Virus genome (UHGV): UHGV-0146066
DNA from: a virus
DNA: 25,475 nt
Direction: 5' to 3' (one strand)
Position 1 is the first letter of the stretch. Each line of letters opens with the position of its first letter. The position numbers and the translations under genes are program-made. A model generated the notes under the pieces. That model saw only the letters and a list, made by a program, of their open reading frames with translations, was not told the DNA's origin and made no database searches. Of this stretch, positions 5,293 to 5,886 are shown piece after piece.

Positions 5293-5412
5293 TTAATCTT
5301 TAGCCTTGCGGCTTCGTTTAGCTGTGGCTTTCGCCGTAACTTCTTCTACTTCTGGAATCACCACCGCTTCATGTTCCGGCTGTGGTTCCGGTTCGGGAAG
5401 TTCTTCGTTAGT
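5293..5412 (-). other. In-frame 39-codon extension ORF after the UGA stop of the tail tube gene (candidate readthrough product)
   Basis: Codons directly after TGA (5413-5415) read TNEELPEPEPQPEHEAVVIPEVEEVTAKATAKRSRKAKD, then TAA at 5293-5295. Homologous to the extension after the capsid gene at 11130-11255. Confidence 0.55.
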
Positions 5413-5886
5413 TCATCCGGCAGTGAAGATTTGCTGTTTCAGCGGAGCACCATCCACCGCGAAGGTAAACTCTTTGGTTACAACTTCTTCATCGCCACCG
5501 TTCATAGCAACTTTAGAAATGAAGCCGTTGAAAGCGGTGCGAATACCAGTCTGTTTTGCTGCGTCAACGTAATATTCTACTTTAATCTGAATACGAGTAC
5601 CGTCTTCGGCAGCTTTGATCAGTTTTTCATGTACCGCATCGCCTGGGATGTAGTTAACGGTCAGAGTCAGATCAGGAACGTTCAGCTTCCCTACCAGTTT
5701 ACGGTTATACTGAGAAGAGAAGGATTTAACTTCTACAGTACCGCGCTCGATACCAGTTTCAGGAAAACCAGCACACTCTTTAATTTCTTCGTAGCTTTCG
5801 TGGTCGAGAGCGGTATTAGTGGTGTCCGCGTGATAGAACAGACTTACCAGACCACCAGTAAAAATATCTTTGAATTGCTGAGACAT
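5413..5886 (-). CDS. Tail tube protein, lambda gpV-like N-domain fold, 157 aa
   Basis: AAGGGG Shine-Dalgarno. Motifs TLTVNYIPGD, KAAEDGTRIQIKVEY and AFNGFISKV align with remembered gpV motifs TLAWMPGE, AWFNEGDTRAYKIRF and VFRGWVSSIG. Ends in UGA-A. Confidence 0.6.
   Translation of the reverse strand: MSQQFKDIFTGGLVSLFYHADTTNTALDHESYEEIKECAGFPETGIERGTVEVKSFSSQYNRKLVGKLNVPDLTLTVNYIPGDAVHEKLIKAAEDGTRIQIKVEYYVDAAKQTGIRTAFNGFISKVAMNGGDEEVVTKEFTFAVDGAPLKQQIFTAG

Follow-up and report, generated by a model that had tools for sequence, protein, structure and literature searches.

Background

In the reviews of recoding that we consulted, stop-codon readthrough in phages is listed only for Qbeta, and tailed double-stranded DNA (dsDNA) phages appear there as users of frameshifting (PMC7026636, PMC5009743, PMC8310308). 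About 5% readthrough of a UGA codon in Qbeta yields A1, a minor extended form of the coat protein (PMC7026636), and our literature searches found no description of UGA readthrough in the capsid or tail genes of tailed phages. Here we analyse virus genome UHGV-0146066, a stretch of 25,475 nucleotides (hereafter "the window") that is an uncharacterised E. coli prophage. Its major tail tube gene and its capsid gene each end in UGA, and each is followed in the same frame by an open segment, of 39 codons behind the tube gene and 42 codons behind the capsid gene. An earlier note on this DNA had proposed programmed readthrough at these stops. The comparisons reported below make it probable that readthrough of UGA is under selection in this prophage, adding a peptide with an acidic linker and a basic tip to a minority of head and tail subunits.

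Among the closest described systems are the Listeria phages PSA, A118 and A500 and the Lactobacillus phage A2, in which both the capsid and the major tail proteins are extended by frameshifting (PMC5009743). The earlier note had called a peptide shared by head and tail proteins unusual, which overstates the case given these four phages. They resemble the proposed system in that recoding at a gene's 3' end gives a second product with a longer C-terminus. They do so by +1 or −1 frameshifting, however, whereas the prophage extension lies in frame behind UGA and the shifted frames carry stops. Moreover, their extensions are often immunoglobulin (Ig)-like, their hosts are Gram-positive and the evidence for them is at the protein level, whereas the prophage extension is short, apparently disordered and predicted from sequence.

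Qbeta is alike in mechanism: it infects E. coli, and its coat gene has one leaky UGA as its stop, which is decoded by a near-cognate tRNA. The Qbeta context, UGA-ACA, also matches the UGA-AC of the prophage. The differences are nonetheless large: Qbeta is a single-stranded RNA levivirus with an unrelated coat fold and a folded extension of about 200 amino acids that is needed for infectivity, whereas the prophage is a dsDNA tailed virus with a predicted low-complexity peptide of 25–45 amino acids, present in homologous copies on two virion genes.

C-terminal additions to virion proteins are made in several ways. Ig-like decorations can be joined to their proteins either in frame or through a +1 or −1 shift, and the capsid extension of T7, like the prophage peptide, is not Ig-like (PMC5009743). 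In SPP1, gp17.1 and its longer form gp17.1* occur at a ratio of 3:1, and the added domain protrudes from the tail tube's surface (PMC8718954, PMC5009743). T7 gp10B, its counterpart in T3, SPP1 gp17.1* and lambda gpV are thus sub-stoichiometric or exterior C-terminal additions to HK97-fold capsids and lambda-like tubes, as the prophage extensions would be. The first three arise by frameshifting and that of lambda gpV is direct; all are longer than the prophage peptide and all except that of T7 are folded, and in none of these phages is a homologous peptide common to head and tail.

A leaky UGA, a short spacer and a stimulatory 3' stem-loop have been demonstrated experimentally in alphaviruses and other eukaryotic viruses (PMC3159437). 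The capsid copy of the prophage extension shares with alphaviruses a conserved RNA structure after the UGA, detected in both cases through suppressed synonymous variation. In alphaviruses, however, the ribosome and release factor are eukaryotic and the +4 base is C, whereas stimulation in the prophage is conjectural and the tube copy has no such structure.

Results

The two gene ends and their extensions

The identities that the earlier note had assigned to the two genes hold up. The 157-amino-acid tube protein matches Phage_TTP_11 and TTP_12, the lambda-like tail tube families of Pfam, and its AlphaFold model has the tube domain of lambda gpV as best match (TM-score of about 0.6), with which it aligns end to end over gpV residues 1–156. 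The capsid gene combines three parts in one fused ORF, namely an S78 prohead protease, a long acidic Glu-rich scaffold-like linker and an HK97-type capsid domain.

Positions 5293–5415 hold exactly the 39-codon in-frame open reading frame (ORF) that had been reported behind the tube UGA, closed by TAA in front of a terminator, and positions 11127–11258 likewise hold the capsid TGA, 42 codons and a TAA; the stop context said to be shared by the two genes is present at both (Table 1). Both extensions end 4–5 nt from terminator-like hairpins that are the two best of the region. The peptides are built alike. In the tube copy, an acidic linker rich in Pro and Glu (net charge −9) leads into a basic tail, TAKATAKRSRKAKD (+5); the capsid copy has a linker of −8 and a tail of +5. 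An Ig-like or fibronectin type III domain is not what we find, the 25–45 low-complexity residues of the extension being too short for an Ig fold. The PGAP annotation gives the tube gene as 157 amino acids and leaves both extension segments unannotated.

The two segments are paralogous, with 80% of aligned columns shared, and have in common a block of 19 identical nucleotides that occurs nowhere else in the window and had 0 matches in any shuffle. Their net length difference is 9 nt. The earlier note had described indels of 3 and 9 nt; preservation of the frame stands, but the exact split into indels does not, since it varies with the alignment. In a single sequence, 39 or 42 open codons are expected by chance with a probability of about 0.15 or about 0.13, respectively. 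Openness in one sequence is therefore weak evidence, and it is the comparative data that lift the case above chance.

Table 1. Positions of the tube and capsid gene ends and associated elements in the window
Feature	Position	Strand	Details
Major tail tube gene	5416..5886	-	157-codon ORF, end ...QQIFTAG
Tube UGA stop, proposed readthrough site	5413..5415	-	Context UGA-ACU-AAC, 5407-5415
Tube extension, 39 in-frame sense codons, TNEELPEPEPQPEHEAVVIPEVEEVTAKATAKRSRKAKD	5296..5412	-	Sequence, translation
TAA closing the tube extension	5293..5295	-	Kept in all relatives
Intrinsic terminator directly after the tube extension	5264..5288	-	10-bp stem, then T-run
19-nt block GTTACGGCGAAAGCCACAG, encodes VTAKAT (tube copy)	5322..5340	-	Identical in both copies
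Capsid fusion gene	11259..13262	-	668 codons, end ...VLHISAE; Pfam Peptidase_S78 and Phage_capsid
Capsid UGA stop, second proposed readthrough site	11256..11258	-	Context UGA-ACU-AAC
Capsid extension, 42 in-frame codons, TNVEPSEPSPDLGEENLIPSQEEESQTVTAKATVKKQRKTKE	11130..11255	-	Paralogous to tube extension
Conserved RNA structure in the capsid extension	11172..11245	-	Outer stem round two hairpins
19-nt block GTTACGGCGAAAGCCACAG, second occurrence (capsid copy)	11156..11174	-	2 matches in window
Tandem TAA-TAA closing the capsid extension	11124..11129	-	Sequence, relatives
Intrinsic terminator directly after the capsid extension	11100..11121	-	Hairpin search

Conservation in related prophages

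Related segments were gathered from 7 RefSeq prophages, from 41 IMG/VR contigs retrieved with the tube protein as query and from 56 retrieved with the capsid domain as query, the two IMG/VR sets overlapping. The main set consists of 69 tube and capsid copies from E. coli prophages, representing 36 distinct nucleotide sequences, and a second capsid scan covered 37 loci that partly overlap the first set. Among 5426 complete E. coli genomes searched, 55 matched the capsid region, 36 of them with chromosomal segments at 90–95% identity, and 22 complete genomes matched the tube region. In E. coli MEI003 (NZ_CP071263), the stretch corresponding to window positions 5230–5900, which holds the tube gene end and its extension, has 98% nucleotide identity. 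A scan of genome contigs with the tube alignment returned one irrelevant locus only, and a protein search with the capsid plus its extension gave only four partial capsid matches.

In all 69 copies the first stop is TGA, the next codon is ACT or AAT, and frame 0 stays open up to a TAA adjoining the terminator, while the other frames contain 2–10 stop codons. The second capsid scan showed the same features at 37 of 37 loci. By gene, TGA is followed by ACT in 32 of 32 extension-bearing tube copies, and by ACT or AAT at every E. coli-type capsid locus and at the Providencia locus L057. The extension varies in length without loss of frame. Among 16 distinct tube sequences it has 36, 39, 40 or 41 codons with frame 0 open throughout, and the capsid extensions have 25, 28, 33, 42, 43, 44 or 45 codons, with every variant in frame. 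About ten separate indel events can be distinguished when the Providencia copy is counted, all of them multiples of three, for which the chance expectation is about (1/3)^10 = 2e-5. Frame-breaking indels or in-frame stops in relatives, which the earlier note had named as a finding that would speak against readthrough, number zero in the 69 copies and the 37 loci.

The UGA and the phase of the extension are kept behind three different gene ends: that of the tube gene and those of two capsid types, A and B, of which type B has a C-terminal region of only 41% identity. A prophage of Providencia sp. JUb39 reads ...NSLPA-TGA-ACT-AAC-GAA-GAG... and continues into an in-frame peptide, TNEELPEEEPLPVATEKSTKRRKSK, that has diverged with its plan unchanged. 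That plan, an acidic Pro/Glu-rich part (−4 to −9) and then a Lys/Arg/Ala-rich tip (+5 to +6), is conserved throughout, and three or four tips appear to be interchangeable (...KRSRKAKD, ...KKQRKTKE, ...KKVGRPPKAK and ...KRGRKPKE).

Substitutions in the tube copy show a coding-type pattern. The inferred changes comprise 15 synonymous and 21 non-synonymous ones, a synonymous excess over the neutral expectation (p = 0.0098), and a ratio resembling dN/dS (non-synonymous over synonymous change) is 0.42 in frame 0, compared with ratios of 1.05 and 1.09 when the two other frames are read (Fisher p = 0.017). The earlier note had named dN/dS across relatives as a check, and in the tube copy this comparison gives a synonymous excess confined to frame 0.

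Stop codons and decoding

Within the window, 19 of 23 genes end in TAA and 4 in TGA, and the two most abundantly needed virion genes use TGA followed by A. E. coli genes that end in TGA tend to carry back-up stops soon after (PMC11126739), and the tube and capsid genes show the opposite pattern. A second in-frame stop lies within 3 codons in 9 of the 21 other genes of the window, the longest open runs among them being those that enter downstream genes.

Relatives that have no extension end their genes differently. Tube genes of this kind have TAA or TAA-TAA directly before the terminator; they include a type at 58% identity (12 loci, at which the capsid extension is still present), types at 72–73% identity, and genes from Salmonella, Providencia and Hafnia. 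Capsid genes that lack an in-frame extension also end in TAA, with the one exception of L044/L102, which has TGA and a tail in the −1 frame. As judged from these sequences, stop identity tracks the extension, with UGA where an in-frame extension follows and TAA where none does, L044/L102 excepted. A sense codon at the position of the stop was found neither among 36 tube protein clusters nor in the capsid search. One 198-amino-acid tube protein that appeared to be such a fusion (P0001, from L003, ENA k141_243218) proved to be a metagenome gene call under genetic code 4, in which TGA is translated as Trp, the DNA being GCT TGA ACT. Genetic-code-4 gene calls of this kind could be mined for other conserved in-frame extensions behind UGA.

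Other ways of decoding the gene ends were considered and rejected. An alternative genetic code or a suppressor tRNA finds no support from ARAGORN, which predicted 0 tRNAs in the window and no UCA anticodon in 28 related loci; its only calls in those loci were 91-nt "tRNA-Gln/Glu" features antisense inside a coding gene. These tRNA-Gln(ttg) and tRNA-Glu(ttc) calls lie antisense in a 140-amino-acid head-completion gene (positions 11014–11104 of L001, with equivalent calls in L002, L004, L005, L013, L016, L018, L022, L026 and L030 and none in the window) and are probably false positives. Frameshifting at the tube gene of the window would use a +1 frame that is open for 19 codons, but in the capsid copy the equivalent frame is closed after only 4 codons, so the openness is not conserved. 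An overlapping mini-ORF at the stop, AUG-AAC-UAA, is not conserved either; L003 has TTG there and no nearby stop.

RNA structure

The capsid copy folds with a minimum free energy of −38.1 kcal/mol, which corresponds to z = −4.16 relative to dinucleotide shuffles. One of its hairpins, CUUCCCCC-GAUUU-GGGGGAAG, occupies positions 11213–11233. Relative to synonymous recodings, capsid copies gave z values of −3.0 to −3.8 (−3.6 for the native sequence) and the Providencia copy gave −5.7, when 40 ordinary coding segments of the same phage, used as the null for this comparison, had a mean of −0.26, a standard deviation of 1.1 and a minimum of −2.55. Across 17 distinct capsid sequences, only 3 of 52 predicted paired sites vary as opposed to 24 of 45 unpaired sites (p = 1.5e-7), and the residues that differ are encoded in the loops of the hairpins. 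Hairpins are not the same in the long, short and Providencia forms of the capsid extension, and in each form the structure starts at nt 14 counted from the U of UGA. The resulting spacer of 10 nt places the start at what we take to be roughly the leading edge of a bacterial ribosome with UGA in its A site. At one type B capsid locus, L105, a clean in-frame deletion of 27 nt removes exactly the second inner RNA hairpin and leaves a 33-codon extension.

The tube copy is different. Its fold gave z = −2.36 relative to dinucleotide shuffles and −1.4 to −1.9 relative to recodings, the latter within the null range, and it showed no conservation of structure, with 15 of 52 paired and 16 of 65 unpaired sites variable (p = 0.68). 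RNA structure therefore cannot explain the conserved frame of the tube copy, and a hairpin as a feature of both copies, which we had considered, is supported for capsid-type copies only. No part of the window matched an Rfam family at the gathering score, the only matches, with E-values of 0.15–0.7, being on or around the terminator hairpins.

Other routes to basic tails

Basic tails also occur in relatives that do not place them behind an in-frame UGA. Prophages of Salmonella and Hafnia have short basic tails directly at the ends of their capsid proteins (...VEASKAK, ...ETRVKK and ...VEAKSKA) and tube proteins (...GLRK, ...GSRK and ...SARK), and the L044 tube ORF continues into ...NVIPEAVAAKEK. 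Six capsid genes of distant relatives (L099, L094, L095, L101, L044/L102 and L050) have TAA or TGA as their stop, and in each a basic tail with a slippery start of Lys codons is open in the −1 frame as far as the terminator. The slippery sites are A_AAA_AAG, A_AAA_AAA or NNA_AAG (A-AAR). L099 has GA-A_AAA_AAG followed by 26 codons that end in ...APVRKPRALKVTK, and its heptamer A_AAA_AAG is presumably the same as the frameshift site of E. coli dnaX. A_AAA_AAA precedes ...KAKAKAETAE in L094, and G_GTA_AAG precedes ...VIPTGREEVSVKSGRKPKTDN in L044/L102. In L099 and L101 a common hairpin lies 6 nt past the stop and seems to contain a compensatory change (CAGGAGCA/TGCTCCTG versus CAGGAGAA/TTCTCCTG). 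Together these sequences suggest that the distant relatives have a −1 frameshift version of the same appendage. Such a variety of routes would parallel the one known for Ig-like decorations (PMC5009743). L110, which had seemed to be a direct in-frame KAKAKA fusion, equals L095 over 60 nt around the stop and has its tail in the −1 frame.

L050 is Escherichia phage DCP80 (PQ671644.1), a 141-kb record classed among the T4-like Straboviridae. It carries a siphovirus-type module of portal, capsid, tube and tape-measure genes related to this prophage family, and could be a chimeric assembly or an unusual mosaic.

Other features of the window

Downstream of the tube gene, a tail-assembly-chaperone ORF of 102 amino acids (4384–4692, minus strand; weak match to Pfam Phage_TAC_13) ends in GAG-GTA-AAG-TAA (4384–4395), and the −1 frame, open from a point slightly upstream of the site, runs into an ORF of 124 amino acids (4001–4375, minus strand). 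The arrangement probably reflects a G/GT −1 frameshift in the chaperone genes; its heptamer, G_GTA_AAG, also stands in front of the −1-frame tail of the L044/L102 capsid gene. At 4001–4003 (minus strand), the 124-amino-acid ORF and the 784-amino-acid tape-measure ORF are in the same frame, with TAA-TTT followed by ATG, which is probably a coincidence.

In this lambda-like siphovirus prophage, a T4-type long tail fibre gene (5943–9443, minus strand) has the head-tail connector genes on one side and the tube gene on the other. It encodes a Gp34 trimerisation domain and an S74 chaperone domain and has 75–87% nucleotide identity to RB49-like gp37, and a gp38-like adhesin gene (4738–5244, minus strand) is located directly past the tube terminator. 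Fibre and adhesin are a clear mosaic import. In searches of the phage collection, T4-like phages matched the window in its tail-fibre gene only.

Discussion

The computational tests named by the earlier note came out in favour of readthrough, the dN/dS comparison more clearly for the tube than for the capsid copy, and we propose the following scheme. The stop of both the capsid and the tube gene, UGA followed by A, would be weak by design. No stop codon of E. coli is leakier than UGA, which is decoded mostly as Trp (PMC11126739). Most ribosomes would terminate at it through release factor 2 (RF2), and a minority would insert an amino acid, most likely Trp by way of near-cognate tRNA-Trp, and go on for 39 or 42 codons to the TAA or TAA-TAA before the transcription terminator. 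The products would be a tube protein of 197 instead of 157 amino acids (40 added residues, about 4.5 kDa more) and a capsid protein with 43 added residues (about 4.8 kDa more). If Trp is inserted, the junctions would read QQIFTAG-W-TNEELPEPEPQPEHEAVVIPEVEEVTAK in the tube protein and VLHISAE-W-TNVEPSEPSPDLGEENLIPSQEEESQTVTAK in the capsid protein. The RNA structure that starts 10 nt after the capsid UGA is a candidate stimulator of readthrough. That the extensions are translated at all, like the residue inserted and the efficiency of readthrough, is something we infer from these patterns.

The appendage would consist of a disordered acidic Pro/Glu-rich linker and a basic tip rich in Lys, Arg and Ala. 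In lambda, the C-terminus of the gpV tube domain carries an exterior Ig-like domain (PMC8718954). Because the tube protein aligns, as modelled, with that gpV domain, the tube extension should project from the surface of the tail. The capsid appendage may face outward as well, by analogy with T7 gp10B, which is displayed on the exterior of the capsid. A few basic-tipped whiskers per virion might then provide weak electrostatic adhesion to anionic polymers of the cell surface, which is the most speculative step of the scheme; in other phages, Ig-like decorations have been suggested to adhere to the cell surface (PMC8718954). Assembly would suffer if every subunit had a long extension, and this would be the reason for retaining the stop.

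Several points weigh against selected readthrough. Variation in the capsid copy is governed mainly by RNA structure, so that much of the conservation of this copy could be at the RNA level, and its dN/dS-like ratio of 0.60 falls short of significance by itself (p = 0.07) and is confounded by the same constraint. Not even the wobble positions of the 19-nt block vary, a sign of constraint at the nucleotide level or of gene conversion. Purifying selection on the extension peptide appears to be only moderate, as would be expected of a disordered linker. The 10-nt spacer exceeds the length that is typical of known recoding stimulators, and we know of no natural structure-stimulated readthrough in bacteria. 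Since the tube copy has no convincing stimulatory structure, readthrough of the tube gene would depend on the stop context alone and could be background, above all in natural isolates, in which RF2 is more active than in K-12. The K-12 RF2 allele is described as inefficient (PMC11126739). Finally, nucleotide and protein searches of the phage collection returned no close relative among isolated phages.

Part of this evidence would fit a structured non-coding 3' untranslated region, serving as an mRNA stabiliser, a processing site, a terminator modulator or the source of a 3'-derived small RNA, with an incidental frame and a functionless stray peptide. Such an element would account for a capsid copy that folds beyond both shuffles and recodings and has near-invariant stems with variable loops, for a 19-nt block that is identical in both copies at wobble positions too, and for the location of both elements directly before strong terminators. 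We nevertheless regard it as unlikely, because the tube copy, which shows no conservation of structure, has kept its frame through indels of 3, 6 and 12 nt and has a synonymous excess in frame 0. Nor does a non-coding element give any reason for some ten indels all to be multiples of three, for UGA-A to stand exactly at the in-frame extensions with TAA elsewhere, or for similar basic tails to occur in the main ORF or the −1 frame of relatives, and no Rfam family matched.

A relic is a good deal less probable. The extension would then be an ancestral direct C-terminal tail that was cut off by a nonsense mutation, leaving downstream codons free of selection, an idea suggested by the basic tails in the main ORF of the Salmonella and Hafnia relatives and of the L044 tube gene and compatible with the only moderate selection on the peptide. 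Decaying codons should have accumulated stops and frameshifts, yet neither occurs in any of dozens of diverged sequences, although these differ by many substitutions and by in-frame indels. UGA-A with an open frame is found, moreover, in two paralogous copies, behind three gene ends and in both E. coli and Providencia.

We give still less credence to re-initiation inside the segment, which would release a free peptide of 20–40 residues. Potential starts can be found: the tube copy has GTG-GTG in frame, the fifth codon of both the short capsid variant and the Providencia variant is TTG, and the DCP80 tail region begins with an ATG. However, no start codon or Shine-Dalgarno sequence is conserved, and the long capsid and tube variants share none. 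A free peptide would also have no need to stay in register with the gene before it, yet that register never changes. Least credible is insertion of selenocysteine at the UGA with the downstream hairpin as a bacterial selenocysteine insertion sequence (SECIS): the hairpin of capsid-type copies does begin 10 nt after UGA, near the minimal fdhF SECIS spacing of 11 nt, but hairpins differ completely between variants in loops (GAAA, AAGAACCG and GAUUU), stems and sizes, so that SelB would have no conserved apical loop, and the tube copy has no conserved hairpin and Rfam gave no SECIS match. A SECIS is a stem-loop immediately downstream of the UGA (PMC7026636).

Selected readthrough of UGA thus remains the reading we prefer for the tube and capsid genes of the window. 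A broader proposal can be offered only tentatively: this enterobacterial prophage family may practise true programmed readthrough that places one adhesive whisker on both head and tail, with the capsid RNA structure boosting readthrough from the mRNA entry of the ribosome, and readthrough, −1 frameshifting and direct fusion may be interchangeable within it.

If confirmed, these findings would extend readthrough to tailed phages as the first such version of the extensions that are otherwise made by frameshifting. The segment of about 130 nt would also be a compact natural system for the effects of stop context and RNA structure on RF2-dependent termination in E. coli and, if stimulation by the capsid structure is real, would include a bacterial readthrough signal stimulated by RNA structure, the first natural one of its kind. 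Such products escape annotation pipelines, and short readthrough extensions on abundant virion proteins may therefore be systematically overlooked. For the prophage family itself, confirmation would mean that evolution within one family can exchange frameshifting, readthrough and direct fusion for one another as solutions, and the minor extended forms could affect adsorption, host range or sensing by defence systems that recognise capsid or tail proteins.

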